From Lachnospiraceae bacterium (lineage in GTDB: Bacteria > Bacillota > Clostridia > Lachnospirales > Lachnospiraceae): a DNA stretch of 64,000 nucleotides. The stretch is taken from the NCBI GenBank assembly GCA_051877515.1, contig JBJEIY010000010.1, positions 27,000 through 90,999 of the forward strand. The letters run 5' to 3'. This document shows positions 8,445 through 60,073 of the stretch, one piece after another. The notes under the pieces were generated by a model, which saw only the letters and a list, made by a program, of their open reading frames with translations, did not search any database and was not told the DNA's origin. How positions within the stretch are numbered: the first letter of the stretch is position 1; every line of letters begins with the position of its first letter. The translations under genes were made by a program, and so were the position numbers.

Positions 8445-10484
8445 ATGGATTATCAGAAATTGTTGAAAGAGGAAAATGAAAGAGTACGGGAGCGCAATGC
8501 TTTGATCGTCGAGCGCATCAAACAAATCGTTGATGAGAATACGGTTGAGGAGCAATACCGGGAGTATTTCCGGCAAGGGGCAGAGAAGTTGCTGCTGATG
8601 GAAGAGGTTTATGAGAGGAATTCTTCCGGTGAGTACAGGATGCTGTCGCTGGAAAGATTGCAGGATTATAACCGCAGGATCTATGAAGAGTTTTATGAGG
8701 AAAACTACGGTCATAGTTACGGAAATCCGGAATATGCGGTAAAGAAGCTGGGGGATATGGGCTGTATTCTGAGCCATCTGTATTATAAGATTGCTTCACT
8801 GCATGAAGCTGCCTTGACCGGAAAGAAACAGATCCTTACCATCTATGAAGAGCTGTTCGTGCAGATCTATAACCGGTTTGAGGAGAAAGATGTGGAGCCG
8901 GCGGAAATAAAGCAGATTGTCTCCGATTTTTATCATGATTATGTAGAGATATTCAGTGAAGTGGTAATGCGGGATTTGCTGGATCCGGAGTGGGATTATT
9001 ATACCGATCTTGTGAAAAACATAGATCTGAGTGATGTGCGCTATCTGTATTATATGGGACATCATGTGACAGAGAACGAGATCCGGACGGCGCAGTTTAT
9101 CAATGAGATGCCGGAAAAAGAGGTGCGTGCCATGGCACATACCTTTGTACAGGGCTTTCTCATTGGTTACTCCAAACTGGAAAAAGATATCCGTGAGAAG
9201 AAAAGTGTGCGCCTTCTTTATACCCTGGGATTTGAGCGCATGATGCGTTATGCCATGGAAGAGTTTGCAAAAGAGGCGGGCATTGTGTGTCTGATAGATG
9301 GTTGTTCTTTGGAAACTACCGAAGCAAACAGACAGTTTGGCTACGATCACAAAGAAGATGCAGCCTTATATTTGGATAAGGCTTATGTGGAACGTTTTAT
9401 CGAGACCAGAAGGGCAGCTTTGGAACAGGAAAAAGAAAATGCCAATGGTTATGCAGGACCGGCAGTCTTGGAAAGCTTCGGGGAGAAGGAATTCCATCCT
9501 GTCCAGAAGAAAGAAGCGGCATCTTATGATGAAAAACAGCAGAAGCTGAGTGTTCAGATGGATGCCATGCAGCAGGAACTTATCAGTGAGTATATTTTTC
9601 CGGAGGAACGAAGTTTCACTATTATTTCCTACCCAATCCCACAGATTGGACCGAAATTTAAAGAAATCTTTGCCCGGACCGTTAAGGTCAATACCCTGGA
9701 TTATCATAAGTATGAGACCATGCAGCAGAAGATCATTGATGTTCTGGATCAGGCAGATGTGGTACGGGTGACCGGCCGGGGAAAAAACAGGACAGATCTT
9801 ACCATTAAGATCTATGATCTTCAAGACCCGGAGCACGAAAGTGCATTTGAAAACTGCGTGGCAGATGTGAACATTCCTGTAGGAGAGGTGTTTACCTCAC
9901 CTGTCTTAAAGGGAACCAATGGACTGTTGCATGTGACACAGGTGTATTTAAACGGATTGCAGTTTAAGGACCTGGAAGTGGAACTTAAGGATGGAATGAT
10001 TGTCCGTTATGACTGCAGGAACTTTGAAACAGAGGAAGAGAATAAGAAATATATGCTGGATCATGTGCTTTTCCGGCATGAAAGTGTGCCGATAGGAGAG
10101 TTTGCCATCGGAACCAATACGGAAGCTTATAAGATGGGCGTGGAGTATGGCATTCAGGCCCAGTTGCCGATCCTGATCGCGGAGAAGACCGGACCGCATT
10201 TTGCCATGGGGGATACCTGTTATGCAAGATGTGAGGATATCAAGGTCTATAATCCGGATGGAAAAGAGATCGTTGCCAGGGATAATGAGGTTTCCTTATT
10301 ACGTAAGACAGACCGTTCTAAGGCATATTATAACTGCCATACCGATATTACCATTCCCTATAACGAACTGGATGGCATTACGGTAGTGAGAAAAGACGGA
10401 TCGACCATAGATATTATCCGCGAGGGAAGATTTGTTGTAGAAGGAACCGAGGAGCTGAATATTCCGTTGGATTCCATGGAATAA
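8445..10484 (+). CDS. M29 (AmpS/PepS-like) aminopeptidase with long N-terminal extension
   Basis: The C-terminal half (VADVNIPVGEVFTSP, EFAIGTN, GPHFAMGDTCY, CHTDITIP) resembles thermophilic metalloprotease M29. The N-terminal ~300 aa are unassigned. Confidence 0.6.
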   Translation: MDYQKLLKEENERVRERNALIVERIKQIVDENTVEEQYREYFRQGAEKLLLMEEVYERNSSGEYRMLSLERLQDYNRRIYEEFYEENYGHSYGNPEYAVKKLGDMGCILSHLYYKIASLHEAALTGKKQILTIYEELFVQIYNRFEEKDVEPAEIKQIVSDFYHDYVEIFSEVVMRDLLDPEWDYYTDLVKNIDLSDVRYLYYMGHHVTENEIRTAQFINEMPEKEVRAMAHTFVQGFLIGYSKLEKDIREKKSVRLLYTLGFERMMRYAMEEFAKEAGIVCLIDGCSLETTEANRQFGYDHKEDAALYLDKAYVERFIETRRAALEQEKENANGYAGPAVLESFGEKEFHPVQKKEAASYDEKQQKLSVQMDAMQQELISEYIFPEERSFTIISYPIPQIGPKFKEIFARTVKVNTLDYHKYETMQQKIIDVLDQADVVRVTGRGKNRTDLTIKIYDLQDPEHESAFENCVADVNIPVGEVFTSPVLKGTNGLLHVTQVYLNGLQFKDLEVELKDGMIVRYDCRNFETEEENKKYMLDHVLFRHESVPIGEFAIGTNTEAYKMGVEYGIQAQLPILIAEKTGPHFAMGDTCYARCEDIKVYNPDGKEIVARDNEVSLLRKTDRSKAYYNCHTDITIPYNELDGITVVRKDGSTIDIIREGRFVVEGTEELNIPLDSME

Positions 10485-25066: not shown

Positions 25067-26143
25067 ATGCATATGGCAGATGCATTACTTGCTCCGGCTG
25101 TTGCGACGACAATGTATGTTACTTCAGCTGTTACAGCAGGTATTTCCATTAAGAATTTAAGAAAAGAAGAGAGATTAACACTGGAGCCAACTTCAAAGCG
25201 ACTTCCCACCATGGCAGTGATGTCTGCAATGGTTTTTGCAGGTCAGATGATCAATTATACCATTCCGGGAACCGGTTCTTCAGGACACCTTTGTGGTGGA
25301 ATGTTGCTAAGCGCTTTGTTGGGACCCTGGGCAGGATTTTTGTCCATGGCGGTCATTTTGGCGATACAGTGTCTTTTTTTTGCAGACGGAGGTCTTATGG
25401 CGCTGGGAGCCAATATCTGGAATATGGCTTTTTACGGATGTTTTGTAGGATATTATCTGATTTATAAACCGTTGATGGGAAGTTCCCTGTTTGCAGGAAG
25501 AGGGCAGCAGGCAGCAACCCGTATACGGATTGGTCTGGCATCCATTATAGGATGTGTATTGACCTTGCAGTTGGGAGCTTTTTCGGTAGTGATCGAGACT
25601 TCCCTGTCCGGAATCACAGAACTTCCTTTTGGCGCATTTTTGGGATTGATGCAGCCGATCCATCTGGCGATTGGTTTGGTGGAAGGTTTGATCACCACAG
25701 CGGTTCTTCTGTTCGTGTATGAGGCAAGACCGGAGCTCATCCGTGAACTTCCCCGGAACGGCGAAGAAAAGCAGAGATGCTCTTTTAAAACAACCCTGTT
25801 GATCCTTGGCACAGTTGTTTTGATCACGGGAGGCGGCTTGTCCCTGTTGGCAAGCTCTAATCCGGATGGTCTTGAGTGGTCCATGTTTGGGAATGAGCAG
25901 GAAGGCTATTCGGCGAACATGGGATTGGATGAAGAGAATTTTGGAGCAGAAAGTAAGGCGGCAGACAGAGCAGGTAAGATTCAGGAGAAAACAGCCTTTT
26001 TGCCGGATTATGCTTTTGCTTCTGATGCAGAAAATGTTTTAGGAACTTCCTTCTCCGGAATTGTAGGTTCAGCCATGGTAGCAGTCCTGGCGGCTATGAT
26101 TTGCATGGCGGGTGGTTTCTTCAGAAAGAGAGTACAGGAATAG
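25067..26143 (+). CDS. cbiM: ECF transporter substrate-capture component CbiM/NikM fused to a PDGLE-domain C-terminus
   Basis: MHMADALLAP N-terminus, polytopic core, C-terminal SNPDGLEWS plus a final TM helix. Confidence 0.8.
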   Translation: MHMADALLAPAVATTMYVTSAVTAGISIKNLRKEERLTLEPTSKRLPTMAVMSAMVFAGQMINYTIPGTGSSGHLCGGMLLSALLGPWAGFLSMAVILAIQCLFFADGGLMALGANIWNMAFYGCFVGYYLIYKPLMGSSLFAGRGQQAATRIRIGLASIIGCVLTLQLGAFSVVIETSLSGITELPFGAFLGLMQPIHLAIGLVEGLITTAVLLFVYEARPELIRELPRNGEEKQRCSFKTTLLILGTVVLITGGGLSLLASSNPDGLEWSMFGNEQEGYSANMGLDEENFGAESKAADRAGKIQEKTAFLPDYAFASDAENVLGTSFSGIVGSAMVAVLAAMICMAGGFFRKRVQE

Positions 26144-26156
26144 GAGGAAGTCGCCC

Positions 26157-26969
26157 ATGAATAAGGCGGAAAAAGCAGGAGCACAGTTTCGTGCTATGGA
26201 TGAACTGGCGTCAGAGAATTCGCCTCTTCATCAGGCAGATGCCGGATGCAAACTTTTTCTGACCATTGCTTATATTATTCTTGTGGTGTCTTTCCATAAA
26301 TATGATTTCACGGGGTTGTTTCCCATGGTGTTGTTCCCGGTGTTGGGATACCAGGTGGCAGGAGTGTCTGTCCGGACCTGTTTTTACAAGCTTCGGATGG
26401 TGTTGCCGCTTGTTTGTGCTGTGGGGATATTCAACCCCTTTTTTGATCATTCTGTAGCTTTTTATCTGGGACGTATTCCGGTTACCGGCGGAATGGTGTC
26501 TATGATGACACTCATGCTGAAAGGGATCTATACGTTAATGACTTCTTTTCTTTTAGCGGCCACCACCCGGATGGAATCCATCTGTGGTGCCTTGCGTAAG
26601 TTTCACTGCCCCAGAATGATCACTTCACTGTTATTGCTGACCGATCGCTACGTTTTGGTCATGCTGGAAGAGGTGGAGGTTATGACCACTGCCTATCAGC
26701 TGCGTGCACCGGGACAGAAAGGGATCCATATCTCTGCCTGGGGATCGTTTCTGGGACAGCTTCTTCTTCGGAGTATGGATCGGGCCCAGGCCCTGTATGA
26801 AAGCATGGTGGTGCGGGGCTATCACGGAGAGTTTCCCGAAAACACGGAAAAAGCAAGAGGGGGAGCATTCCTGCTGGTCACTGTCGTTGTATTTGCCCTG
26901 ATGCTACTGTTTCGTATGGTAAATGTAGCATCTTTGTTGGGTAGCTGGATGGTTTCGCACAGTGCATGA
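26157..26969 (+). CDS. cbiQ: ECF transporter transmembrane (T) component CbiQ
   Basis: CbiQ-like polytopic protein. ATG at 26157 follows AGGAGGAAG. Confidence 0.8.
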   Translation: MNKAEKAGAQFRAMDELASENSPLHQADAGCKLFLTIAYIILVVSFHKYDFTGLFPMVLFPVLGYQVAGVSVRTCFYKLRMVLPLVCAVGIFNPFFDHSVAFYLGRIPVTGGMVSMMTLMLKGIYTLMTSFLLAATTRMESICGALRKFHCPRMITSLLLLTDRYVLVMLEEVEVMTTAYQLRAPGQKGIHISAWGSFLGQLLLRSMDRAQALYESMVVRGYHGEFPENTEKARGGAFLLVTVVVFALMLLFRMVNVASLLGSWMVSHSA

Positions 26970-27015
26970 CAGAAACGCTGCAAAAGAGAAGAGGTTATGG
27001 TTAGGAGTGGAGAAA

Positions 27016-27762
27016 ATGCTTCAGTTTGAACAGGTTTGTATTTCTTATGATCATAAACATAAAATACTTGAAAAGCTCTCCTTTCATATTAAGCCCGGAG
27101 AACAGGTGGGGCTTATTGGGGCCAACGGAGCAGGAAAAAGCACCCTGTTAAAAGGGGCACTGGGTCTTTTGCCCTGGGAAGGCAGGATACTGGTGGATCA
27201 GATCCCTTTGAAAAAGGAGAATCTGGCAGTGATACGCAAAAAGTTAGGTTATGTCCTGCAGGATTCCGACAATCAGATGTTCATGCCTACGGTACAGGAA
27301 GACATGCTGTTTGGTCTGCTCAATTACGGAATGTCACGCATACAGGCGGAGCGTGTGGTCGACGAAACTTTGGAAGCATTGGGACTGGAACACCTGAAGC
27401 AGTGCCATAACCATAAATTATCCGGTGGGGAAAAGAAAATGGCAGCCATTGCCACGATTCTGGCTATGAAGCCGGAAGCATTGCTGATGGATGAACCGTC
27501 AGCAGCCTTAGATCCCAGAAATCGCCGCAATCTCATTCGGATCCTGCCAAAACTACCCCAGACCAAACTGATAGCCAGCCATGATCTGGATTTGATCTTA
27601 GAAATCTGTGACCGGGTGATCTTATTAGATCACGGACAGATTGTGGCAGATGGTCCCACGCAGGAGATCCTGCGGGATCAGGCATTGTTGGAGGCACATG
27701 GCCTGGAACTGCCTTTTTGTCTGACGGGATTGCCGGAGAAACTGCGAAATGCACAGAAATAA
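27016..27762 (+). CDS. cbiO: ECF transporter ATPase CbiO
   Basis: Walker A GANGAGKST, signature LSGGEKK, Walker B LLMDEP. ATG at 27016 follows GGAGTGGAG. Confidence 0.88.
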   Translation: MLQFEQVCISYDHKHKILEKLSFHIKPGEQVGLIGANGAGKSTLLKGALGLLPWEGRILVDQIPLKKENLAVIRKKLGYVLQDSDNQMFMPTVQEDMLFGLLNYGMSRIQAERVVDETLEALGLEHLKQCHNHKLSGGEKKMAAIATILAMKPEALLMDEPSAALDPRNRRNLIRILPKLPQTKLIASHDLDLILEICDRVILLDHGQIVADGPTQEILRDQALLEAHGLELPFCLTGLPEKLRNAQK

Positions 27763-28238: not shown

Positions 28239-29543
28239 ATGAAGTATCAGAGACTTCTTTGCTCTGAAATGAAAAGGAACCTGGGACAAGTAACGATTAT
28301 GTATAAATGGAAGAAAAAACGCTTTCGGGGAAGCCTGATGCTTCTTTTGGGCGGCCTTGCCGTCCTGATCATTGTAAAAAACCTGATGACCATGAATACG
28401 GGACAAAGCCTGGCAAGGCGCATGAAAGATCTGGCTTGTGATAAACTGGCATATGCGCTGGTCAAGATCCAGGCTCCGGTACTGACCTGGCAGGTGGAAG
28501 AAAAGGAAGATTCTCTGTTTGCATGGATTGAGCAGTCGCTACTGGAGGGAATGCCCCTCTATACCTATTGCAGGGAAAAACAGCAGACAGAGACAGCACC
28601 GGAATCTGCCATTACCTTTGAAATGATCCAGGCCTCTTCCGGGGTAGCGGCAGGAGAGCTTTCGGAGGAGACGCCGGGAACGGTGGAAGAAAAAAAGACG
28701 GAGGAAGTTGGCAGCAAAAAACAGGAGGGAGAGGACTGCGAGGACTCTCTGGTTGCCTACAGTGGAGATTTCCGCAAAGATATTCTGAAGGTGTTTTCCG
28801 GGAAAAAGCTAAAGGACTATGAGTACCTGATATCCCATTTTTATCATGTGGATTCCACAACACAGCTTCCCCAAAGTCAGCTGAAGTTTGGCAAATTATT
28901 TGAAAAAGACCTCACCATTGAAAAAGAAGGAAAGGAACCAAAGATTTTAATTTATCATACCCATTCCCAGGAGGGGTATAAAGCCAGTTCCAAATCCAAA
29001 GGAAAAACGGTGGTGGATGTAGGAGATTATCTTACAAAGCTTTTGGAGGAGGAATACCATATCCCTGTTTTGCACCATACCGGAGAATATGATGTGAAAA
29101 GTCGGGATACGGCATATTCTACGGCTTTGCCCCACATTGAAAAAATCCTGGAGGAGAACCCATCCATTGAAGTGGTGATCGATCTGCACCGGGACGGTGT
29201 GAATGAGAAAACCAGGCTGGTTACACAGATTAATGGAAAAAAGATGGCCCAGATCATGTTTTTTAACGGGGTAAGTCGTTCGAAGGCTCTGGGAGCGCTG
29301 GATTATCTGGAAAACAAGAATCTTTCGGAAAATCTGGCTTTTTCCCTGCAGATGCAGTTGGCGGCCAGGGCATACTATCCATCGCTGACCAGGGATATCT
29401 ATATTAAGGGCTACCGTTATAACATGCATCTTAAGGGAAAGACTCTGCTGGTAGAAGTGGGAGCCCAGACCAATACCTATGAAGAAGCAAAGAATGCCAT
29501 GGAGCCGTTGGCAAAGTTGTTAGACCGGGTGTTAAATGAGTGA
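28239..29543 (+). CDS. spoIIP: stage II sporulation protein P
   Basis: N-terminal TM; ILIYHTHSQEGY, VIDLHRDG and FFNGVSR motifs. Start ambiguous (28239, 28269 or 28299). Confidence 0.85.
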   Translation: MKYQRLLCSEMKRNLGQVTIMYKWKKKRFRGSLMLLLGGLAVLIIVKNLMTMNTGQSLARRMKDLACDKLAYALVKIQAPVLTWQVEEKEDSLFAWIEQSLLEGMPLYTYCREKQQTETAPESAITFEMIQASSGVAAGELSEETPGTVEEKKTEEVGSKKQEGEDCEDSLVAYSGDFRKDILKVFSGKKLKDYEYLISHFYHVDSTTQLPQSQLKFGKLFEKDLTIEKEGKEPKILIYHTHSQEGYKASSKSKGKTVVDVGDYLTKLLEEEYHIPVLHHTGEYDVKSRDTAYSTALPHIEKILEENPSIEVVIDLHRDGVNEKTRLVTQINGKKMAQIMFFNGVSRSKALGALDYLENKNLSENLAFSLQMQLAARAYYPSLTRDIYIKGYRYNMHLKGKTLLVEVGAQTNTYEEAKNAMEPLAKLLDRVLNE

Positions 29544-29570
29544 CGGACAGGGGACGGTTCTCTGTCCGTC
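29542..29570 (+). repeat. palindromic element copy 1 (GGACAGGGGACGGTTCTCTGTCC core); also acts as the spoIIP terminator hairpin
   Basis: GACGGACAG...CTGTCCGTC starts inside the TGA stop codon; a T run follows at 29576-29582. Confidence 0.75.
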
Positions 29571-29625
29571 ACTACTTTTTTTATTGAAATGGATGATAAA
29601 TCTATTGAGAAATACGATAAAAGGC

Positions 29626-29654
29626 TTGATAAATCTTCGTCAACATAGTATGCT
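29626..29654 (+). promoter_or_regulatory. candidate sigma-A promoter of the selD operon
   Basis: TTGATA, 17 nt, TATGCT. Confidence 0.35.
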
Positions 29655-29684
29655 AAAAAGAAGAAAAAGCTAAGAAAAAGAGGT

Positions 29685-30731
29685 ATGAAGATGGCAGAAG
29701 AAAAACTATTTTGCAGTACCGGCGGATGCACCGCAAAGCTGGGGGCGGGCATTCTGAGCAGGGTATTGGAACGACTTCCGAAGGGTGAGCCGGATCCGGA
29801 TCTGCTCATTGGATTTGACAGCAAAGATGATGCGGCAGTGTACCGACTGTCTGATGATATTGCATTTGTCCAGACACTGGACTTTTTTCCGCCAATGGTG
29901 GAAGATCCTTATCTGTTCGGTCAGATTGCGGCAACCAATGCCTTAAGTGATATCTATGCCATGGGCGGCGAAGTGAAGACGGCATTGAATATCGTCTGTT
30001 TTCCCGAGCAGATGGACTTGAATATTCTGGGTGAGATCATGCGGGGTGGCTCTGAAAAAGTGATTGAGGCCGGAGGAACTCTGGCAGGCGGTCATTCCAT
30101 TGCTGATACCGGAGTGAAATATGGTCTGTCTGTAACCGGAGTGGTACATCCGGACAGGATACTTGCCAACAATGGCGTAAAACCGGGAGATGTACTGATC
30201 CTTACCAAACCGTTGGGAGTAGGTATTATCTGTACGGCAAATCGTGTGGGACAGGCTTCCAAAGAGGCTATGGATGCGGCCATGAAATCCATGACCACCT
30301 TAAATAAATATGCGGCAGAATGCATCCGTTCGTATCCGGTACATGGCTGTACGGATGTGACAGGTTTTGGCTTTCTGGGGCATCTTCATGAGATGCTGGA
30401 TGGACGGGCTTCCTGTATCATTTATGCAGATCAGGTACCGAAATTTGAGGAAGCGCTTTCCTATGCGGATGAGTTCCTGCTTACGGCAGCAGGCCAGCGT
30501 AACCGTAACTTTGCCCAGGACAGAGTGGTGTTTGAAGATGTGGATTTTGCAATGGAGGAGATCTTATTTGATCCTCAGACTTCCGGAGGTCTGCTGTTCA
30601 GTATCGACAAGCAGGAGGCACCAAAGCTGATGGAACAGTTAAAGAAAGTGGTTCCGGCAGCACGGATCGTGGGTGAAGTCATGGAAAAGGCCGATGTGGA
30701 AATCGTGGTAAAACCTACCGCGGGAAAGTAA
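29685..30731 (+). CDS. selD: selenide, water dikinase (selenophosphate synthetase), Cys form
   Basis: [10 protein letters not shown] (active-site Cys/Lys), PurM-like AIR-synthase fold (DDAAVY, DFFPP). No in-frame TGA. The start may be the second ATG at 29691. Confidence 0.92.
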
Positions 30732-30812
30732 CCGATACAACGCAGAGCCGGGATCCGGCCTGCAGAATAGAAAACAAAAACAGCGAAAGGCTGTACTTAG
30801 GAGGAAAAGAAA

Positions 30813-31436
30813 ATGATCAAAGTAAACGCAATGGGAGATACTTGTCCAATCCCGGTAGTAAAAACAAAGGATGCCATCAAACAGTTAGGAGGAGCAGGGG
30901 TGGTAGAGACTTCTGTAGATAACGAGATTTCCGTACAGAACCTGATGAAGATGGCAAAACAGAAAGGCTATGAAGCAAAATCTGAAAAGATTTCCAATAC
31001 GGAGTTTAAAGTAACCATGACCATCGGCGAGGAGCAGGCAGCAGCTGCGGCAACCGATAATGAGCCGGTAGACTGTCTGGTAACTCCGGGCGGCGGAAAG
31101 AAAAATGTAGTGGTAGCAGTTTCTTCCGCACAGATGGGTGAAGGCAGTGAGGAGCTTGGAAAAACCCTGATGAAAGGCTTCCTCTATGCATTAAGCCAGC
31201 AGGAGGAACTGCCAGGCACCATTTTATTCTATAATGGCGGAGCGAACATTACCTGCGAGGGAAGTGTTTCTCTGGAAGATTTAAAATCCATGGAGGCACA
31301 GGGCGTGGAGATCTTAACCTGCGGAACCTGCTTAAACTTCTATGGACTGTCCGAGAAGCTGGCAGTAGGTGAAGTAACTAACATGTATGACATCGTTGAA
31401 CATCTGGTGAAAGCAGATGTTGTGGTAAAACCATAG
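30813..31436 (+). CDS. yedF: YedF-like selenium-metabolism protein (TusA/SirA-like N-domain fused to DsrE-like C-domain)
   Basis: AMGDTCPIPVVKTKDAI (CPxP motif); C-terminal DsrE-like segment with LTCGTCLNFYG. Confidence 0.8.
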   Translation: MIKVNAMGDTCPIPVVKTKDAIKQLGGAGVVETSVDNEISVQNLMKMAKQKGYEAKSEKISNTEFKVTMTIGEEQAAAAATDNEPVDCLVTPGGGKKNVVVAVSSAQMGEGSEELGKTLMKGFLYALSQQEELPGTILFYNGGANITCEGSVSLEDLKSMEAQGVEILTCGTCLNFYGLSEKLAVGEVTNMYDIVEHLVKADVVVKP

Positions 31437-31439
31437 ATC

Positions 31440-31676
31440 ATGAGGCAGAAGAAATTACAACTGGTCATTTCCTTTGAGTCAACAGCTCATGCTATGGCCG
31501 TGGAAACCTTTTGTATGGAAAAAGGACTGCCCGGAAGACTGATCCCCATTCCCAAGGAGATCACGGCGGGATGCGGACTGGCCTGGAAGGCTGATCCGGA
31601 GGCAAAAGAAGAACTGCTGGGGGCGTTTGAACAAAACGGCATTTCCTATGACGGTGTCCATGAGATCATGATCTAG
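31440..31676 (+). CDS. DUF3343 (putative Se/S carrier-like) protein, copy 1
   Basis: 78 aa, ...FESTAHAMAVE...GRLIPIPKEITAGCGLAW. Starts 3 nt after yedF. Confidence 0.7.
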   Translation: MRQKKLQLVISFESTAHAMAVETFCMEKGLPGRLIPIPKEITAGCGLAWKADPEAKEELLGAFEQNGISYDGVHEIMI

Positions 31677-31699
31677 AATCTACAAAAGGAAAAAACAAT

Positions 31700-32479
31700 A
31701 TGAGTGTATATATCGGAATTGATATCGGTTCTACCTGTGCAAAAACCATTGTGCTGGATGAGGACCGAACCATCCTGCACCGCATTTTAATGCCCACAGG
31801 ATGGAGTAGTGTGGAAACAGCACAGACCATTAAGGAGAAGCTGGGCGAGTATTCCATTGATGTGGAAAAGGAAAATGTAGTGGCTACCGGATACGGCAGA
31901 ATTTCCGTGCCCTATGCGGATAAGTGCATTACAGAGATCACCTGTCATGGAAAAGGAGCCTGCCATCTTTTTGAGAAAGAAAATCTGCTTATCATCGATA
32001 TCGGCGGTCAGGACACCAAGATCATCCAGGTGAAGGACGGCGCAGTAAGCGATTTTCTGATGAATGATAAATGTTCGGCAGGAACCGGACGTTTCATGGA
32101 AGTTATGGCCAATACACTGGCTATACGTCCGGAAGAACTGTGCGAATTGGCTTCCCGGGGAGGAAATACCACCATCAGCTCTCTGTGTACCGTATTTGCA
32201 GAGTCTGAGGTGATCAGTCTTATCGGACGGGGAGAAAAACGGGAAAACATCGCCTATGCGGTGGTGGATTCCATCGCCAGCAAGGTGGTCAGTCAGGCAG
32301 GTCACATCAACCGGGGAACGATGCCGGTGTGTCTGACCGGCGGATTGTGTGAGTTTACCTATTTGTGTCAGAGCATTGGTACAAAGTTAGGAACACAGAT
32401 ATACAGCAAAGCCGACGGAAGATATGCGGGAGCCATAGGTGCTGCCTATTTCGCCGCCGGATTGGGAGAAAAGAAATGA
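31700..32479 (+). CDS. BcrAD/BadFG/HgdC-type ATP-dependent activase (archerase)
   Basis: GIDIGSTCAKT (ASKHA phosphate-1), DIGGQDTK, and cluster-bridging Cys contexts NDKCSAGTGRF and CTVFAESE. Confidence 0.85.
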   Translation: MSVYIGIDIGSTCAKTIVLDEDRTILHRILMPTGWSSVETAQTIKEKLGEYSIDVEKENVVATGYGRISVPYADKCITEITCHGKGACHLFEKENLLIIDIGGQDTKIIQVKDGAVSDFLMNDKCSAGTGRFMEVMANTLAIRPEELCELASRGGNTTISSLCTVFAESEVISLIGRGEKRENIAYAVVDSIASKVVSQAGHINRGTMPVCLTGGLCEFTYLCQSIGTKLGTQIYSKADGRYAGAIGAAYFAAGLGEKK

Positions 32480-33618
32480 TTTATTTAGATAATGCTGCTA
32501 CCACCATGGTAAAACCACAGTGCGTGGTAGATGCAGTTGCCAAAGCCATGTCATCCATGGGAAATGCAGGCAGGGGGGCACATAGCTCAGCTTTGGACGC
32601 ATCCCGTGTAGTCTATCAGACCCGGGCAAAGCTGGCTGAGTTTTTTCACTGCAAAAGACCGGATCATGTGATTTTTACCTGTAATGCCACGGAGAGCTTA
32701 AATATTGCCATTCGCGGAATCCTGGAACCGGGAAGCCATGTGATCACCACAGAGTTGGAACACAATTCTGTGCTGCGTCCTTTATACCTCATGGAACGGG
32801 AAAAAGGAGTAAAAATTTCCTTTGTGAAGGCGGATAAGCAAGGTAACGTTAGTCCGGGTCAGTTTGAAGAACTGATCCGTGAGGATACGAAAGCCATTGT
32901 TTGTACCCATGCTTCGAATCTTACGGGAAATGTGGTGGATATCGAAGCGGTGGGAAAGATCGCCAAAGCACATGATCTGCTTTTTATTGTGGATGCATCC
33001 CAGACAGCGGGTGCATTGCCCATTGATATGGAACGGATGAACATAGATATCTTATGTTTTACCGGACACAAAGGTCTCATGGGACCCCAGGGAACCGGTG
33101 GCATGTGTATCCGGGAGGGTGTGGAGATTCTTCCTTTTAAATGCGGAGGAAGCGGAGTCCATTCTTATGAGAAGGAACAGCCCAAAGAATATCCCACCAG
33201 ACTGGAAGCAGGAACCTTGAACAGTCATGGCATTGCAGGATTAAGTGCAGCCATTGATTATCTGAATGAGGTGGGAATTTCTGCCATTCAGGAAAAAGAA
33301 AGCCATCTGGCAAAGCGTTTTTATGAAGGGGTTTCAGCTATTGATGGCGTTACGGTTTACAGTGATATGCAGGCAAAAGAGCATACCGGCGTGGTAACCC
33401 TAAACATCCGGGATTATGATTCATCCATGGTATCGGATGCGTTATATACAGATTATGAAATTGCCACCCGGCCGGGGGCACATTGCGCGCCCAAAATGCA
33501 TCAGGCATTGGGAACAACCGAGCAAGGTGCAGTAAGATTCAGTTTTTCCTGGTTTAACACAGAGGAAGAGGCAGATGCCGCCATTGCTGCAGTAAAGGAA
33601 CTGGCGGAAGAAGAATAG
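32476..33618 (+). CDS. class V PLP enzyme, NifS/cysteine desulfurase or selenocysteine lyase-like
   Basis: IYLDNAATT, FTGHKGLMGPQG (PLP Lys), RPGAHCAP (catalytic Cys loop). ATGA overlap with the activase stop. Confidence 0.85.
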   Translation: MIYLDNAATTMVKPQCVVDAVAKAMSSMGNAGRGAHSSALDASRVVYQTRAKLAEFFHCKRPDHVIFTCNATESLNIAIRGILEPGSHVITTELEHNSVLRPLYLMEREKGVKISFVKADKQGNVSPGQFEELIREDTKAIVCTHASNLTGNVVDIEAVGKIAKAHDLLFIVDASQTAGALPIDMERMNIDILCFTGHKGLMGPQGTGGMCIREGVEILPFKCGGSGVHSYEKEQPKEYPTRLEAGTLNSHGIAGLSAAIDYLNEVGISAIQEKESHLAKRFYEGVSAIDGVTVYSDMQAKEHTGVVTLNIRDYDSSMVSDALYTDYEIATRPGAHCAPKMHQALGTTEQGAVRFSFSWFNTEEEADAAIAAVKELAEEE

Positions 33619-33648
33619 AATGACATAAAGAACATAGGAGGAGAAGAA

Positions 33649-34926
33649 ATGTCAGATTACGTAAAAATGTGGGAAGAGTTAGGAATGGACTTAGAGGCAC
33701 ATGACAATTTGTGCCAGGTATTGCCAACAGCAGTGGGGGATGTATTTTTAACTCAGGAGAATAGACCGAAGGCTATGGATTTCTGGGATATGGTAATCTC
33801 TGAAGTTCATGGTATCAGACCGGCGGAGCTGATCGAAGAACAGAAGAAGGGAAGAAAAGTATTCGGAACCTTCTGTGTATATGTGCCGGATGAAGTGATC
33901 ATTGCAGCCAACGGTATTGTTACCGGACTTTGCGGAGGCTCCCAGTTCTGGGTGCCGGATGGAGAAGCGGTACTTCCAAAGAATACCTGTCCACTGGTAA
34001 AAGCATCCGTGGGAGCAAGACTTGGAAAAACCTGTCCCTTCTTCCGCATTGCGGATATGTATGTGGGTGAGACCACCTGCGATGGAAAGAAAAAGGCTTA
34101 CGAAATCCTGGGTGAGGACGTTCCTATGTATGTTATGGATGTTCCACAGATGAAGAGAGAAAAAGACATCCTGAAATGGAAGGATGAAATCAAAGAATTT
34201 GCTGCAAAGGTTGAGGAATTTACAGGAAATAAGATTACAGCTGAGAAACTGGCGGAAGCCATTAAGATCGTAAATGAGAAGCGTAAGGCAATGCAGAGGG
34301 TATATGACTGCCGCAAAAGTAAATGTCTTCCCATCTCCGGAAGAGATACCCTGCTTATGACACAGATTTCTTTCTTTGATGATCCGGTACGTTGTGCCCA
34401 GATGTGTAACCGCCTGGCGGATGAATTGGAGCAGAGAATCAAAGACGGTGTCAGTGTAGTCAAAGAAGGAACCAAGAGAATCCTGGTTACAGGAACACCA
34501 TTGGCAGTACCGAACTGGAAGTTACATAACATCATCGAAACCAGTGGTGCGGCTGTTGTTTGCGAAGAAATGTGTACCGGAACCAGATATTTTGAGAATC
34601 TTGTGGATGAAACCGCAGACAATCTGGAAGATCAGTATATGGCTCTGTCACAACGCTATATGAAGACCAACTGTGCATGCTTTACACCGAATACCGGACG
34701 TATTGATGATATCCTTCGCATGGTAAAAGAGTATCAGGTAGATGGAGTCATTGACTGCAGCCTGAAATTCTGCTGTCTGTATGATACTGAGAAGTACTCC
34801 GTATCCAGAGCCTTAAAAGAAGCCGGAGTACCGGTGCTCAGTCTGGAAACCGATTATGCAGATACCGATGCAGAGCAGTTAAGAACCAGGATCGGAGCTT
34901 TTGTGGAGATGCTGAATGAGCAGTAG
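33649..34926 (+). CDS. 2-hydroxyacyl-CoA dehydratase / double-cubane-cluster (DCCP) family protein
   Basis: 425 aa, HgdB/BcrBC-like. Cys-rich (FCVY, GLCGG, NTCP, KTCP, TTCDG, ...CEEMCTG). Single subunit only. Confidence 0.75.
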   Translation: MSDYVKMWEELGMDLEAHDNLCQVLPTAVGDVFLTQENRPKAMDFWDMVISEVHGIRPAELIEEQKKGRKVFGTFCVYVPDEVIIAANGIVTGLCGGSQFWVPDGEAVLPKNTCPLVKASVGARLGKTCPFFRIADMYVGETTCDGKKKAYEILGEDVPMYVMDVPQMKREKDILKWKDEIKEFAAKVEEFTGNKITAEKLAEAIKIVNEKRKAMQRVYDCRKSKCLPISGRDTLLMTQISFFDDPVRCAQMCNRLADELEQRIKDGVSVVKEGTKRILVTGTPLAVPNWKLHNIIETSGAAVVCEEMCTGTRYFENLVDETADNLEDQYMALSQRYMKTNCACFTPNTGRIDDILRMVKEYQVDGVIDCSLKFCCLYDTEKYSVSRALKEAGVPVLSLETDYADTDAEQLRTRIGAFVEMLNEQ

Positions 34927-35188
34927 TGATGTCCGCTATTACATCCTGTTTGCCAATTACGAACACGGCATGGCGTTGCATGAACTGCTGGATCAAGAAG
35001 AGATCCCTAATCGGATCGCGCCGGCACCCAGAGCGATTCAGGGGGAGTTGTCCTGCGGTGTTTCCATTGTACTGGAGCCGGAGGCACTGGACGATGCCAG
35101 GCGCTGTATTGCAGAGCATCATGCAGACTATTACGACATCGTTCCTTTGGAAGGGCAGATGAAGCCCAGGCGGGATAAATACTGTTAA
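34916..35188 (+). CDS. DUF3343 (putative Se/S carrier-like) protein, copy 2
   Basis: 90 aa, YYILFANYEHGMALHELL...RIAPAPRAIQGELSCGVS. 11-nt overlap with the preceding gene. Confidence 0.65.
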   Translation: MSSSDVRYYILFANYEHGMALHELLDQEEIPNRIAPAPRAIQGELSCGVSIVLEPEALDDARRCIAEHHADYYDIVPLEGQMKPRRDKYC

Positions 35189-35200
35189 GGAAAATGAAAG

Positions 35201-35223
35201 GGGCGTCCCATTTTGGGACGCCC
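35201..35223 (+). terminator. GC-rich hairpin at the end of the selD operon (no clear U tract)
   Basis: GGGCGTCCCA TTT TGGGACGCCC, a perfect 10-bp stem. Confidence 0.45.
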
Positions 35224-56414: not shown

Positions 56415-58307
56415 ATGAAATCAATTGAGAATTTAAAATCAATCCGTGAGTCGGTAGAGGCTCAGGTAGGTCTTAGAACTTCCGGTAATAAAACAGCCGG
56501 ACCGGTGGATGGATACCGCTGCCATGTTTTGGTCTGCGGAGGAACCGGCTGTACTTCATCAGGAAGTCAGCAGATCATACATAATTTTGAAGAAGAACTT
56601 GCAAAATATGGCCTGGATAAAGAAGTTGCCATTGTCAAGACAGGATGCCACGGCTTATGTGCCATGGGACCCATTGTAGTTATTTATCCTGATGCAACCT
56701 TCTATGCCAAAGTGCAGCCGGAGGATGTGACAGAGATCGTATCGGAGCATCTTGTAAACGGTCGTGTGGTAGATCGTCTGATTTACCGTGAAGCGGCAGA
56801 GGATGGCACACATGCCCACAAATCTATTCATGACACCAACTTCTATAAGAAGCAGCACCGTATTGCATTGCGCAACTGTGGTGTGATCAATCCGGAGAAT
56901 ATTGACGAGTACATTGCAACCAGGGGATATGAAGCCCTGGGTAAGGTATTGACCCAGATGCAGCCGGATGAGGTAATCCAGCTGATCTTAGACAGCGGAC
57001 TGCGCGGACGTGGAGGTGCGGGTTTCCCCACCGGTCTGAAGTGGAAATTTGCTTCCGGAAATCGCGGAAATGTGCAGAAATATGTTTGCTGTAATGCAGA
57101 TGAAGGAGATCCGGGTGCATTCATGGATCGTTCCGTTTTGGAAGGAGATCCCCATGTTGTACTGGAAGCTATGGCCATTGCAGGTTATGCCATCGGAGCA
57201 AATCAGGGTTATATCTACGTACGTGCAGAATATCCTATTGCGGTAGAGCGACTGAAGATTGCTATCGGTCAGGCAAGAGAATACGGTTTACTTGGAAAAG
57301 ATATTTTCGGAACCGGATTTGATTTCGATATCGACTTGCGACTGGGTGCGGGAGCATTCGTTTGCGGTGAGGAAACTGCACTTATGACTTCCATTGAAGG
57401 AAACCGTGGAGAGCCTCGTCCGAGACCACCTTTCCCGGCAGTGAAGGGTCTGTTCCAGAGCCCGACTATTCTGAATAACGTAGAGACCTGGGCAAATATT
57501 CCTCAGATCATTTTAAACGGACCGGAATGGTTTGCAGCCATGGGTACGGAAAAGTCCAAGGGAACCAAGGTATTTGCTTTGGGTGGAAAGATCAACAACA
57601 CCGGACTTGTGGAAATCCCAATGGGAACAACCTTGCGTACGGTTATTGAAGAGATTGGCGGAGGAATCCCCAATGGTAAGAAGTTTAAAGCAGCCCAGAC
57701 CGGAGGACCATCCGGAGGATGTATCCCGGCAGAGCATTTTGATATTCCTATCGACTACGATAATCTGATCAGAATCGGTTCCATGATGGGATCCGGTGGA
57801 TTGATCGTAATGGATGAAGATAACTGTATGGTGGATATTGCAAAATTCTTCCTGCAGTTTACCGTAGATGAATCCTGTGGAAAATGTACTCCCTGCCGTG
57901 TGGGAACCAAGCGTATGCTGGAGATCTTAGACAGGATCACAGAAGGCAAGGGAACCATGGAAGACCTGGATAAATTAGAGGAACTTGCTTATTACATCAA
58001 AGATAATGCATTATGCGGACTGGGACAGACAGCTCCGAATCCTGTATTATCCACATTACGCTATTTCAGGGATGAGTATGTTGCCCATATTCAGGAAAAA
58101 CGTTGTCCGGCAGGTGTATGTAAGGCGTTGACTCACTTTGAGATCGATCCGGAAAAATGTCGTGGATGTACCTTGTGTGCAAGAAACTGTCCGGTGGATG
58201 CCATCGAAGGAACCATTAAGAATCCTCACGTGATCAACACCGATAAGTGTATCAAGTGCGGAACTTGTATGGATAATTGTAAATTTGGCGCGATCAGTAA
58301 GAAATAA
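56415..58307 (+). CDS. hydB: NuoF-like flavoprotein subunit of NAD(P)H-linked [FeFe] hydrogenase
   Basis: N-terminal 2Fe-2S domain, GLRGRGGAGFPTGLKW (FMN), ESCGKCTPCR, two C-terminal 4Fe-4S motifs. Confidence 0.92.
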   Translation: MKSIENLKSIRESVEAQVGLRTSGNKTAGPVDGYRCHVLVCGGTGCTSSGSQQIIHNFEEELAKYGLDKEVAIVKTGCHGLCAMGPIVVIYPDATFYAKVQPEDVTEIVSEHLVNGRVVDRLIYREAAEDGTHAHKSIHDTNFYKKQHRIALRNCGVINPENIDEYIATRGYEALGKVLTQMQPDEVIQLILDSGLRGRGGAGFPTGLKWKFASGNRGNVQKYVCCNADEGDPGAFMDRSVLEGDPHVVLEAMAIAGYAIGANQGYIYVRAEYPIAVERLKIAIGQAREYGLLGKDIFGTGFDFDIDLRLGAGAFVCGEETALMTSIEGNRGEPRPRPPFPAVKGLFQSPTILNNVETWANIPQIILNGPEWFAAMGTEKSKGTKVFALGGKINNTGLVEIPMGTTLRTVIEEIGGGIPNGKKFKAAQTGGPSGGCIPAEHFDIPIDYDNLIRIGSMMGSGGLIVMDEDNCMVDIAKFFLQFTVDESCGKCTPCRVGTKRMLEILDRITEGKGTMEDLDKLEELAYYIKDNALCGLGQTAPNPVLSTLRYFRDEYVAHIQEKRCPAGVCKALTHFEIDPEKCRGCTLCARNCPVDAIEGTIKNPHVINTDKCIKCGTCMDNCKFGAISKK

Positions 58308-58324
58308 GTGGAGGAAAAAAGACC

Positions 58325-60073
58325 ATGGGAAATATTAACCTGAAAATAAATAATATGGATGTGTCTGCGCCGGAAGGCTCCACTATCCTGGAGGCTGCCA
58401 GATTGGCTCAGATCGAGATCCCGACCCTTTGTTATTTGAAGGAGATCAATGAAATCGGTGCATGCAGAATGTGTGTCGTTGAAGTAAAAGGGGCAAAAAC
58501 TCTGGTAACTGCATGTGTGTATCCGGTCAATGAGGGAATGGAGGTATTCACCAATTCACCGCGGGTACTGGAATCCAGAAAGAAAACACTGGAGTTGATC
58601 CTGTCTACACACAACAGAGACTGTCTTGCCTGTGTAAGAAGCGGAAACTGTGAATTGCAGACCCTTTGTAAGGAACTGGGTGTGGAAGAGTCCGGCCGTT
58701 ATGACGGAGCAAAACCGGAAGGACAGTTGGATGATTCTGCAGCGCATATGGTAAGAGATAACAGCAAATGTATCCTTTGCCGCCGTTGTGTAGCTGCCTG
58801 TGAGAAGACCCAGGGCATTGGCGTGATCGGTGCTAATGAGCGAGGATTTAAGACCTATATCGGAACGGCCTTTGACCTGCCTCTTTCCGAAACCAGCTGT
58901 GTAAGCTGCGGACAGTGTATTGCTGTATGTCCTACCGGTGCATTGTATGAAAAAGATTTTACCACTCAGGTATTCGAGGCGATTGCAGATCCTGATAAAT
59001 ATGTAGTGGTTCAGACGGCTCCCGCAGTTCGTGCGGCGTTGTCCGAGGAATTTGGTTATCCGGTAGGAACCAATGCGGAAGGCAAAATGGCAGCAGCACT
59101 TCGCCGCCTTGGATTTGATAAAGTATTTGATACCAACTTTGCGGCAGATCTTACCATTATGGAAGAAGCACATGAGTTTCTGGATCGGGTACAGAATGGC
59201 GGAACATTACCGCTGATCACATCCTGTTCACCGGGATGGGTAAAATACTGTGAGCATTACTATCCGGATTTGACAGATAATCTTTCCAGTTGTAAATCTC
59301 CCCAGCAGATGTTTGGTGCCATTACCAAATCCTATTTTGCCGAGAAGATGAACATCCCGAAGGAAAAGATCGTCGTAGTCAGTGTTATGCCGTGTACGGC
59401 AAAGAAATTTGAAATCGGAAGAGACGATGAAGCCGGAGCAGGCTTGCCGGATGTAGATATTGCTCTTACAACCAGAGAGTTGGCAAGAATGATCAAAAAA
59501 GCAGGAATCCGGTATGACGACCTTCCGGATGAGGAATTTGACAATCCATTGGGAGAGTACACAGGAGCAGGTGTCATCTTCGGAGCTACCGGTGGTGTTA
59601 TGGAAGCAGCCCTTCGTACTGCAGTAGAAACCCTTACCGGAGAAGAGCTGAAGAATCTGGATTTCACTGACGTTCGTGGAACCAAAGGAATCAAAGAGGC
59701 TACTTATAGTGTGGCAGGTCTGGATGTGAAGGTGGCAGTTGCCAGCGGACTTTCCAATGCCAGAGAGTTACTGGATAAGGTAGAGTCCGGTGAAGCACAA
59801 TATCACTTCATTGAGATCATGGGATGCCCGGGAGGCTGTGTCAATGGAGGCGGTCAGCCTCAGCAGCCTGGTTATATCCGCAATACGGTGGATATCCGTG
59901 CAAAACGTGCATCTGTGCTGTATGATCTGGACAAGGATGCACCAATCCGTAAATCTCACGAGAATCCGGAGATCAAGAAACTATATGCAGAATATCTGGG
60001 TGAACCGGGAAGTGAAAAAGCGCATCATCTGTTACATACAACCTACGTAAAACGGTGTGTGAACCAGGAATAA
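58325..60073 (+). CDS. hydA: [FeFe] hydrogenase catalytic subunit (CpI-like M3 architecture) with variant L1 motif
   Basis: 2Fe-2S N-domain, HNRDCLACVRSGNC, two ferredoxin motifs, L2 VMPCTAKKFE, L3 EIMGCPGGCVNGGGQP. L1 reads TSCSPGW. Confidence 0.92.
   Translation: MGNINLKINNMDVSAPEGSTILEAARLAQIEIPTLCYLKEINEIGACRMCVVEVKGAKTLVTACVYPVNEGMEVFTNSPRVLESRKKTLELILSTHNRDCLACVRSGNCELQTLCKELGVEESGRYDGAKPEGQLDDSAAHMVRDNSKCILCRRCVAACEKTQGIGVIGANERGFKTYIGTAFDLPLSETSCVSCGQCIAVCPTGALYEKDFTTQVFEAIADPDKYVVVQTAPAVRAALSEEFGYPVGTNAEGKMAAALRRLGFDKVFDTNFAADLTIMEEAHEFLDRVQNGGTLPLITSCSPGWVKYCEHYYPDLTDNLSSCKSPQQMFGAITKSYFAEKMNIPKEKIVVVSVMPCTAKKFEIGRDDEAGAGLPDVDIALTTRELARMIKKAGIRYDDLPDEEFDNPLGEYTGAGVIFGATGGVMEAALRTAVETLTGEELKNLDFTDVRGTKGIKEATYSVAGLDVKVAVASGLSNARELLDKVESGEAQYHFIEIMGCPGGCVNGGGQPQQPGYIRNTVDIRAKRASVLYDLDKDAPIRKSHENPEIKKLYAEYLGEPGSEKAHHLLHTTYVKRCVNQE

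Follow-up and report, generated by a model that had tools for sequence, protein, structure and literature searches.

Herein, we analyzed a stretch of 64,000 nucleotides (nt) from a Lachnospiraceae bacterium (GenBank assembly GCA_051877515.1, contig JBJEIY010000010.1, positions 27,000 to 90,999 of the forward strand), hereafter the window, and focused on an operon headed by selD, the gene for selenide water dikinase. Seven co-directional open reading frames (ORFs) on the + strand (29685–35188), with successive gaps of 81, 3, 23, −4, 30, and −11 nt, encode SelD, YedF, two DUF3343 proteins (DUF3343a and DUF3343b), an ATP-dependent activase, a pyridoxal phosphate (PLP)-dependent lyase, and a double-cubane cluster protein (DCCP). 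The operon adds one more case to the published association of DCCP with selenium metabolism, to which no function has been assigned, and represents a distinct variant compared with the only characterized DCCP. The seven same-strand genes, their coordinates, and their spacings agreed with the original prediction, a note made earlier from the sequence alone. Each gene matched a curated family, and the motifs quoted in that note (GGCTAKLG, CPIP, GIDIGSTCAKT, NDKCSAGTGRF, GHK, and GAHCAP) were all present. Family matches also confirmed that the block is flanked by spoIIP and lepA (Table 1).

Table 1. Coordinates of the selD operon and its boundary signals in the window
Feature	Coordinates	Strand	Family match or description
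spoIIP intrinsic terminator, upstream boundary of the operon	29539..29573	+	16-bp stem, 8 GC pairs, then T-run; strong
Candidate sigma-70-type promoter, TTGATA-17-TATGCT	29626..29654	+	9/12 consensus match
selD, selenide water dikinase, Cys form	29685..30731	+	TIGR00476; AIRS and AIRS_C domains
yedF, long form	30813..31436	+	TIGR03527; PF01206 and PF02635
DUF3343a (copy 1), Se/S carrier-like	31440..31676	+	PF11823
Archerase-type ATP-dependent activase	31700..32479	+	TIGR00241; PF01869
Group-II class-V PLP lyase, SclA/EF2568 family	32476..33618	+	TIGR01977
Class-I DCCP, DUF3343-coupled gut subfamily	33649..34926	+	NF040772
DUF3343b (copy 2), DCCP-coupled carrier	34916..35188	+	PF11823
GC-rich palindromic hairpin, operon end	35201..35223	.	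10-bp stem, 8 GC pairs

Shine-Dalgarno-like motifs were found upstream of six of the seven operon starts. The promoter that had been predicted at 29626 is plausibly placed, just past the spoIIP terminator and ahead of selD, but its 9/12 match carries little weight, as the number of promoter-type consensus matches in the region (13) was not above that in shuffled sequences (11.4±3.5). The hairpin predicted to close the operon has a real stem; however, the T-run is found only on the minus strand, and the + strand continues with AAATCG, lacking a U-tract, so it is an atypical + strand terminator. A sequence scan revealed no convincing internal terminator or promoter between selD and the DCCP gene, and an Rfam scan of 27.5–36 kb gave chance-level matches only, with no riboswitch or leader. 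The 81-nt spacer between selD and yedF (30732–30812) contains two small hairpins (GCCGG-GAT-CCGGC and ACAGC-GAAAG-GCTGT) with no + strand U-tract; judged from tblastn match boundaries, this spacer is only about 24–27 nt long in close relatives (L002–L004), indicating that it is not a conserved element.

Families were called by comparing profile scores with curated cutoffs. SelD scored 388.6 bits on TIGR00476 (cutoff 125), and its N-terminal Cys/Sec-x-x-Lys loop (Sec, selenocysteine) reads GGCTAKLG, with Cys15 and Lys18. Among related loci with a cluster-adjacent SelD, 25 of 26 carried the Cys form; the remaining one (L026:719-1678) was the Sec form, with an in-frame TGA where Cys15 stands elsewhere. 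Cys/Sec swaps, which mark redox-active Cys residues, were looked for in the orthologues of DCCP, DUF3343, YedF, and the lyase as well, and none was found; only this one SelD had a TGA. YedF scored 215 bits on TIGR03527 (cutoff 110) and consists of a TusA-like domain, with CPIP at residues 11–14, fused to a DsrE-like domain. DUF3343a scored 85 bits on PF11823 (Se_S_carrier, cutoff 25), with a conserved internal Cys in AGCG. The activase reached 233 bits on TIGR00241 (cutoff 125), and its relatives in the PDB included MbdQ, HgdC, the HadI-type activator of 2-hydroxyisocaproyl-CoA dehydratase (4EHT), and DCCP-R, the DCCP reductase (7YYL_E); it is the predicted electron donor to DCCP. The PLP lyase is a member of TIGR01977 (456 bits, cutoff 377), whereas on the SclA-specific model NF040779 it scored 383 bits, below the cutoff of 525, and in the PDB comparison it was SufS-like. 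It belongs to the selenocysteine lyase/cysteine desulfurase family. The mechanically called ORF opens at GTG 32365, but ATG 32476, overlapping the activase stop by 4 nt, is the most plausible start of the lyase.

The DCCP gene product scored 506.1 bits on NF040772 (cutoff 350) and aligned with the enzyme of Carboxydothermus hydrogenoformans (6ENO/7YYL) from residue 4 to the end (E 1e-144). Its AlphaFold2 (AF2) model, with a predicted local distance difference test (pLDDT) score of 91, superposed on 6ENO with a TM of 0.97 and a root mean square deviation of 1.2 Å over 421 columns, and had helices at residues 4–66. This N-terminal helical extension is the marker that separates class I from class II (YjiM), and the window DCCP possesses it. 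The seven-Cys motif, as defined in the DCCP literature and comprising six cluster ligands and a cluster-adjacent Cys (C76, C95, C114, C144, C309, C342, and C375), was invariant in 235 homologues. The protein is thus a class-I DCCP by sequence and model, for which an [8Fe-9S] double cubane and ATP-dependent substrate reduction are predicted. In class-I DCCPs, according to the DCCP review literature, the extension blocks the CoA funnel and leaves two narrow small-molecule channels, which makes it unlikely that the substrate is a CoA ester.

We dismissed the acyl-CoA dehydratase reading because of the number of subunits, the family scores, and the class-I architecture. A single PF06050 gene is present in the operon, with no second subunit to form an α/β pair, and the scores of DCCP on dehydratase and benzoyl-CoA reductase models (HadC 128 vs a cutoff of 700, HadB 32 vs 750, BzdN 101 vs 454) were far too low. 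The 2-hydroxyacyl-CoA dehydratases and class-I benzoyl-CoA reductases (HgdAB, HadBC, BzdNO, and MbdON) do share the PF06050 superfamily and an ATP-dependent activase with the window. However, they are α/β pairs rather than single subunits, their TM to DCCP was only 0.74–0.79, and the CoA funnel is closed in class-I DCCPs.

Although of the same class, the window DCCP is only about 50% identical to the Carboxydothermus type. It has five further invariant Cys residues that are specific to its subfamily (C22, C249, C253, C305, and C370), and C305 and C370 are placed 4–5 residues ahead of the cluster ligands C309 and C375; Cys257 of the C. hydrogenoformans type is missing. DCCP is also unusually well conserved, with a median identity to the window copy of 88%, against 48–70% for the six neighboring genes. 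Between Lachnospiraceae and Synergistota, DCCP retained 89% protein and 74% DNA identity, with synonymous differences (pS) of 0.91, which is saturated, and a nonsynonymous distance (dN) of 0.088. The dN values of the activase, lyase, and DUF3343b were 0.28–0.31, about 3.5-fold higher. Recent horizontal transfer as the source of the cross-phylum identity was ruled out by the saturated synonymous sites, and the slow evolution points to strong purifying selection. By these comparisons the window DCCP belongs to a distinct, very slowly evolving class-I subfamily. Its sequence is 99% identical to the DCCP of the metagenome-assembled genome JBJEKY01. One 624-aa 'DCCP fusion' (P0023) was treated as a chimera or gene-calling artefact, as its N-terminal 200 aa look unrelated and it lies on a 2.4-kb contig.

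The closest partner of DCCP is DUF3343b, which scored 57 bits on PF11823 (cutoff 25) and has a conserved internal Cys in SCG. Its start overlaps the DCCP stop by 11 nt in the window, and the two genes overlapped in 56 of 77 pairs according to our own start-codon calls. Independent database gene calls agreed with this: all three look-ups begun from DUF3343b, including one in Cloacibacillus (Synergistota), found a 424–425-aa HGD-D gene immediately upstream with an 8-nt overlap. The window DUF3343b has a loop Cys47 and a C-terminal Cys90, ending RDKYC-COOH. The C-terminal R-D-x-Y/F-C-COOH was present in all 77 loci and in 119 of 120 close database homologues, and among more distant homologues (representatives at 50% identity, reaching down to ~30%) Cys was the last residue in 67 of 72 with a recognizable tail. 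In the AF2 model (pLDDT 75), Cys47, conserved in the family, is located on a loop of a β-α-β-β-α-β ferredoxin-like domain, which is followed by an unstructured C-terminal stretch of ~13 residues (tail pLDDT ~50). No PDB sequence matched DUF3343b, and Foldseek returned only generic ferredoxin-like PII/CutA/ACT matches (E≥0.01), with no specific fold relative. We found no published description of the DCCP–DUF3343b pairing or of the terminal Cys in a literature search lacking many subscription journals.

To assess how widely the gene set is conserved, one genome per GTDB species was scanned, which gave 203 DCCP relatives. The best 80 of these 203 were 80–99% identical and came from Lachnospiraceae, Oscillospiraceae, Negativicutes, Tissierellia, and others; neighbors were counted within 8 kb of DCCP in the 49 species-level loci with adequate flanks. 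DUF3343b directly followed DCCP in 49/49. The activase was present in 37, the TIGR01977 lyase in 35, DUF3343a in 25, yedF in 24, and selD in 15, and all six neighbors together, that is, the full seven-gene set, in 14. Adjacency to selD thus extends beyond this genome, as the original prediction had required. DUF3343a, which lacks the C-terminal Cys tail, travels with yedF and adjoined it in 25 loci. Two main gene orders were seen, that of the window and activase-DCCP-DUF3343b-lyase-yedF-DUF3343a-selD(-yqeB). The other repeated neighbors of DCCP were selenium genes, namely LysR_Sec_metab (12 loci), Se-dependent XDH (6), YedE (5), and YqeB (4), and no transporter or auxiliary catabolic gene was conserved beside the DCCP–DUF3343b pair in the 49 loci. 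The core of activase, lyase, DCCP, and DUF3343b was also found in Cloacibacillus evryensis (Synergistota). Judged by conservation, the functional nucleus would consist of the lyase, DUF3343b, DCCP, and the activase, with YedF/DUF3343a and SelD as frequent additions. This operon type is abundant in gut and rumen Clostridia, with thousands of database clusters and >200 species-level genomes, and one DUF3343b sequence alone occurs in 463 index blocks.

Several of these selenium clusters contain a second, shorter DCCP paralogue of ~356–385 aa (38% identical, 463 bits on NF040772) without the N-terminal extension, predicted from its sequence to be class-II/YjiM-like with an open channel. It occurs in L007, L008, L012, L017, L020, L022, L070, L076, L086:4536-5675, and L088:1678-2835, mostly adjoins the activase, and is missing from the window. 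The Cloacibacillus locus also encodes, between the lyase and DCCP (L084:8306-8656), a CMD/AhpD-like protein of 116 aa that contains a CxxC motif (KCEPC) as well as a CC pair and is possibly an extra thiol-redox component.

The characterized DCCP/DCCP-R system of C. hydrogenoformans (6ENO, 7YYL; Jeoung & Dobbek) shares with the window the full-length fold, the seven-Cys motif, the N-terminal extension, and a nearby archerase-type activase. Unlike the window, three loci examined for the Carboxydothermus type (C. islandicus, Thermincola potens, and Paradesulfitobacterium) consist of DCCP and activase only, and neither DUF3343 nor a lyase, YedF, or SelD is encoded in their vicinity. In addition, the window DCCP is translationally coupled to DUF3343b and not to the activase, and MbdQ and HgdC are nearer to the window activase than is the DCCP-R of Carboxydothermus. 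Since the Carboxydothermus-type clade has DCCP and activase alone, the selenium context appears to be specific to the DUF3343-coupled subfamily. In Paradesulfitobacterium (L083:6847-10654), the genes flanking the pair are that of a divergent LysR regulator and a ferredoxin:thioredoxin-reductase-β-like one, which may hint at a thiol/disulfide-linked role for the Carboxydothermus-type clade.

Two further systems resemble the operon in gene content. The selD-sclA(EF2568)-yedF(EF2566) cluster of Enterococcus faecalis has SelD, a TIGR01977 lyase, and a TIGR03527 YedF like the window, but it is described without DCCP or activase and sits with yqeB/xdh sinks, whereas the window has no sink and its lyase scores below the SclA-specific cutoff. 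The clusters of Slackia heliotrinireducens (Shel_25420-25470) and of PMC10418091 contain the activase, DUF3343, Sec-lyase family, YedF, DUF3343, and HgdB-like DCCP genes, in another gene order and in another host phylum; these papers assign no function and contain no analysis of the DCCP–DUF3343 pairing, the terminal Cys, or the subfamily split. A more remote parallel is known from sulfur metabolism. In the DsrC/DsrAB and TusA-TusBCD-TusE relays, a small carrier with a conserved Cys on a flexible C-terminal arm offers the chalcogen to a reductase. By analogy only, the window would likewise pair a Cys-armed carrier with a reductase and place TusA-like/DsrE-like domains upstream in the relay, although the reductase of the Tus/Dsr relay contains sirohaem rather than a double cubane. 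Homology of DUF3343b to DsrC finds no support in its predicted ferredoxin-like fold, which has generic PII/CutA/ACT likeness.

The association of DCCP with selenium is not new. A connection of YedF and the EF2568/TIGR01977 lyase with SelD was made by Haft & Self (2008), who placed the two 'probably prior to selenophosphate synthesis'. In Lin et al. (2015), YedF and DUF3343 are put forward as selenium redox/carrier proteins, and the STRING partners tabulated for Slackia include activase and HgdB-like genes, on which the authors do not comment. In the study of Kayrouz et al., yedF and duf3343 ranked with the most frequent overlaps of selD. In the preprint of Haft (2022; Haft & Gwadz, J Bacteriol 2023), 955 of 970 high-scoring NF040772 proteins occurred in SelD+ assemblies, and two readings of the link were offered, the processing of selenium-containing compounds or a selenium-bridged cofactor. 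In PMC10418091, DCCP and DCCP-R are shown side by side with Sec lyase and selD and are labeled putative selenium-metabolism genes, and DCCP is called 'provisionally linked to selenium metabolism'. The DCCP reviews date the discovery of the protein to 2018 and give its physiological function as not known, and DCCP and DUF3343 are both absent from a selenoproteome review of 2026. The original prediction therefore overstated the novelty of a selenium role for DCCP: the association was already published without an assigned function (Lin et al. 2015; Haft 2022; PMC10418091), and the mechanism was among the options already voiced. What is added here is the class-I subfamily with five extra Cys residues, the overlapping DUF3343b with its Cys tail, and the contrast with Carboxydothermus-type loci. 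The original prediction had also placed the activase/DCCP pair in one functional group with selD, yedF, and DUF3343, and this claim survived the refutation tests named beforehand: high-scoring DCCPs lie almost entirely in SelD-containing assemblies according to the published profiling, the DCCP is not an acyl-CoA dehydratase, and no internal terminator separating it from selD was found.

Considering these observations, we tentatively favor the reading of a conserved selenium-trafficking operon, in which a module of DCCP, activase, and DUF3343b was added to the set of SelD, SclA-like lyase, YedF, and DUF3343 and feeds SelD. The SclA-like PLP lyase would take selenium from selenocysteine as an enzyme-bound perselenide, and the Cys carriers YedF and DUF3343a would pass it on to DUF3343b, which may hold it on the loop Cys47 and/or the C-terminal Cys90, possibly bridging both. 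The flexible tail of ~13 residues could then bring the selenium to one of the narrow DCCP channels, where two electrons energized by the activase and ATP would release free selenide. The last step, the conversion of selenide to selenophosphate, is the established reaction of SelD. Such a linear pathway assigns every gene of the operon and leaves none over. The gene content, operon arrangement, families, conserved neighborhood, DCCP–DUF3343b coupling, and Cys signatures were observed; what DCCP reduces, which way selenium flows, and what the tail does are inferred. That the substrate is the chalcogen itself is suggested by the conservation of only selenium/sulfur-handling genes nearby, with no catabolic or transport genes among them.

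Several points weigh against this reading. Thiols or thioredoxin free selenide from perselenides in vitro, and the need for an ATP-driven, very low-potential reductase is not obvious. SelD/SclA/YedF clusters such as that of E. faecalis work without DCCP (Haft & Self 2008; SclA preprint), and DUF3343 proteins are present in SelD-lacking organisms too (Lin et al. 2015). Being under the SclA-specific cutoff, the PLP lyase may be a cysteine desulfurase. At one locus (L053:1618-4300), a DCCP of 85% identity has no adjacent DUF3343b, with rubrerythrin and a Fur/PerR-like regulator downstream. The pair is also sometimes remote from selenium genes; in Coprococcus comes (L035:9995-11555), for example, a lone DCCP–DUF3343b pair lies amid GNAT, Uma2, antitoxin, and ECF-S component genes, and no activase, lyase, or selenium gene was found within 10 kb of it. 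A selenium substrate of DCCP is a prediction from gene context, and the neighborhood evidence fits selenium flow to DCCP equally well. Hence, the proposal in the original prediction that the pair carries out a reductive step feeding SelD stands as far as the link of the module to selenium is concerned, whereas its direction is conjectural and the reverse flow fits nearly as well.

In that reverse direction, SelD, the lyase, YedF, and DUF3343 would install selenium in the double cubane of DCCP (for example, as Se-bridged [Fe8S8Se]), with DUF3343b as the insertion chaperone. Haft names this as a formal possibility, and the SelD correlation spans the whole NF040772 family, beyond the selD-adjacent genes. 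Dedicated chaperones and NifS-type desulfurases are often encoded beside the metalloenzyme that they mature, a lyase and a carrier come with the gut subfamily but not with the Carboxydothermus type, and the installation of selenium in DCCP would also account for a window with no sink. However, the C. hydrogenoformans DCCP produced in E. coli is active with a sulfide-bridged [8Fe-9S] cluster, and the 'type B' clusters adjoin yqeB and Se-dependent XDH, which are adequate sinks already. Nor is there a sign of DCCP as the sole selenium sink, as genomes with an orphan SelD are almost nonexistent: Lin et al. counted 5 among 812 SelD genomes (two alphaproteobacteria, two Xenorhabdus, and one methanogen, with no Clostridia), the DCCP content of these five being unchecked. 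On balance we consider the reverse direction unlikely, and a selenium-containing double cubane built from selenophosphate or perselenide in the DUF3343-coupled subfamily, with DUF3343b as insertase, a shade less likely again; if true, it would be a fourth SelD-dependent selenium-utilization trait and the first natural iron-selenium cluster enzyme. It is similarly unlikely that DCCP reduces a small selenium or sulfur metabolite (methylselenides, other organoselenium, elemental or poly-selenide, or selenite-derived selenotrisulfides) and that DUF3343b captures the selenide. The narrow class-I channels suit small molecules, and class-I DCCPs reduce acetylene. DCCP and DCCP-R also occur in methyl-selenide-linked mlp clusters (PMC10418091) and beside SAO loci (Haft 2022), and an open-channel class-II paralogue co-occurs in several clusters. 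Yet the pair has no conserved transporter or auxiliary catabolic gene beside it, and the overlap of the genes, like the invariant terminal Cys, speaks for a protein–protein substrate relationship.

The remaining explanations take selenium out of the DCCP reaction. The lyase, as a cysteine desulfurase, and DUF3343b might supply the ninth (bridging) sulfide or rebuild the oxygen-labile double cubane, the proximity of selD then reflecting a lyase/carrier pool common to sulfur and selenium. NifS provides the classic example of a desulfurase that serves one complex Fe-S enzyme. The lyase is second only to DUF3343b as a neighbor (level with the activase) and lies under the SclA-specific cutoff, and the DUF3343 family is not selenium-specific. 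We nevertheless judge such sulfur-based maturation or repair improbable, as the Carboxydothermus-type DCCP builds its cluster without such factors, and the co-occurrence with SelD and the recurrent YedF, YedE, LysR_Sec_metab, and YqeB neighbors would be left unexplained. The same neighbors make it quite improbable that the operon serves a sulfur-only pathway, releasing sulfide from persulfide carriers for thio-cofactor or Fe-S synthesis. TusA, DsrE, DUF3343, and SufS-like proteins are basically sulfur-relay folds, and DUF3343 is found in genomes lacking SelD, but selD heads the operon and lies within 8 kb of DCCP in 15 of the 49 loci, the recurring YedF, YedE, LysR_Sec_metab, and YqeB are curated as selenium-specific, and nearly all DCCPs (955/970) are in SelD+ assemblies. 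A chance adjacency or a mosaic of horizontal transfer, with no functional link at all, is very improbable. The operon was indeed inserted so as to break the conserved rpsT-spoIIP-lepA-hemN synteny; the gene set, however, recurs in varied orders in Bacillota, Synergistota, and, from the literature, Actinomycetota, the saturated synonymous sites indicate that the similarity is not due to recent transfer, and the GC content matches that of the flanks.

This type of operon brings two questions into one genetic unit, the physiological substrate of DCCP, and the reduction of lyase-derived zero-valent (perselenide) selenium and its hand-over to SelD. If selenium flows to SelD, DCCP would gain its first physiological function, as a perselenide/selenium reductase; if it flows the other way, the outcome would be a selenium-containing Fe-S cofactor. 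The DCCP–DUF3343b pair, the terminal Cys tail, and the extra Cys residues near the ligands offer concrete experimental handles. The value of the analysis thus lies in sharpening a known association into a testable model, not in discovering it.

As the original prediction had noted, the window holds no selenium sink. No tRNA gene of any kind, including tRNA-Sec, was present in the 64 kb, tblastn found no YqeB, YedE, XDH, or LysR_Se, and there was no selA or selB. Housekeeping genes account for the large ORFs, and no EF-Tu-type GTPases other than LepA and TypA are encoded. The markers of all three SelD-dependent traits (Sec: selA/selB/tRNA-Sec; SeU: selU; Se-Mo cofactor: yqeB/yqeC/xdh) were thus missing within 64 kb, and the sinks of selenophosphate probably lie outside the window. 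Sinks vary among the carriers of the module, with YqeB and XDH beside some clusters and a Sec-type SelD beside one. C. comes, which carries the lone pair, has the Sec machinery (Lin et al. 2015).

The surrounding region (17736–38413) shows the Bacillus-like synteny comEC-holA-…-rpsT-spoIIP-lepA-hemN, interrupted twice, by a cbiM-type (CbiM/PDGLE) and ABC-ATPase transporter cluster (25067–27762) and by the selenium operon. GC content was 45–49% through the operon and its flanks, and a genomic island was rejected, as the operon showed no compositional signal. Elsewhere in the window, a 679-aa ORF (8445–10484) matched M29 peptidase in its C-terminal ~240 residues only, the N-terminal two thirds being without a Pfam match. 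At 56415–60073, the genes for a NuoF-like flavoprotein (630 aa) and, after it, an [FeFe]-hydrogenase large subunit (582 aa) have the look of an electron-bifurcating HydABC-type enzyme, which could plausibly supply the activase with reduced ferredoxin.

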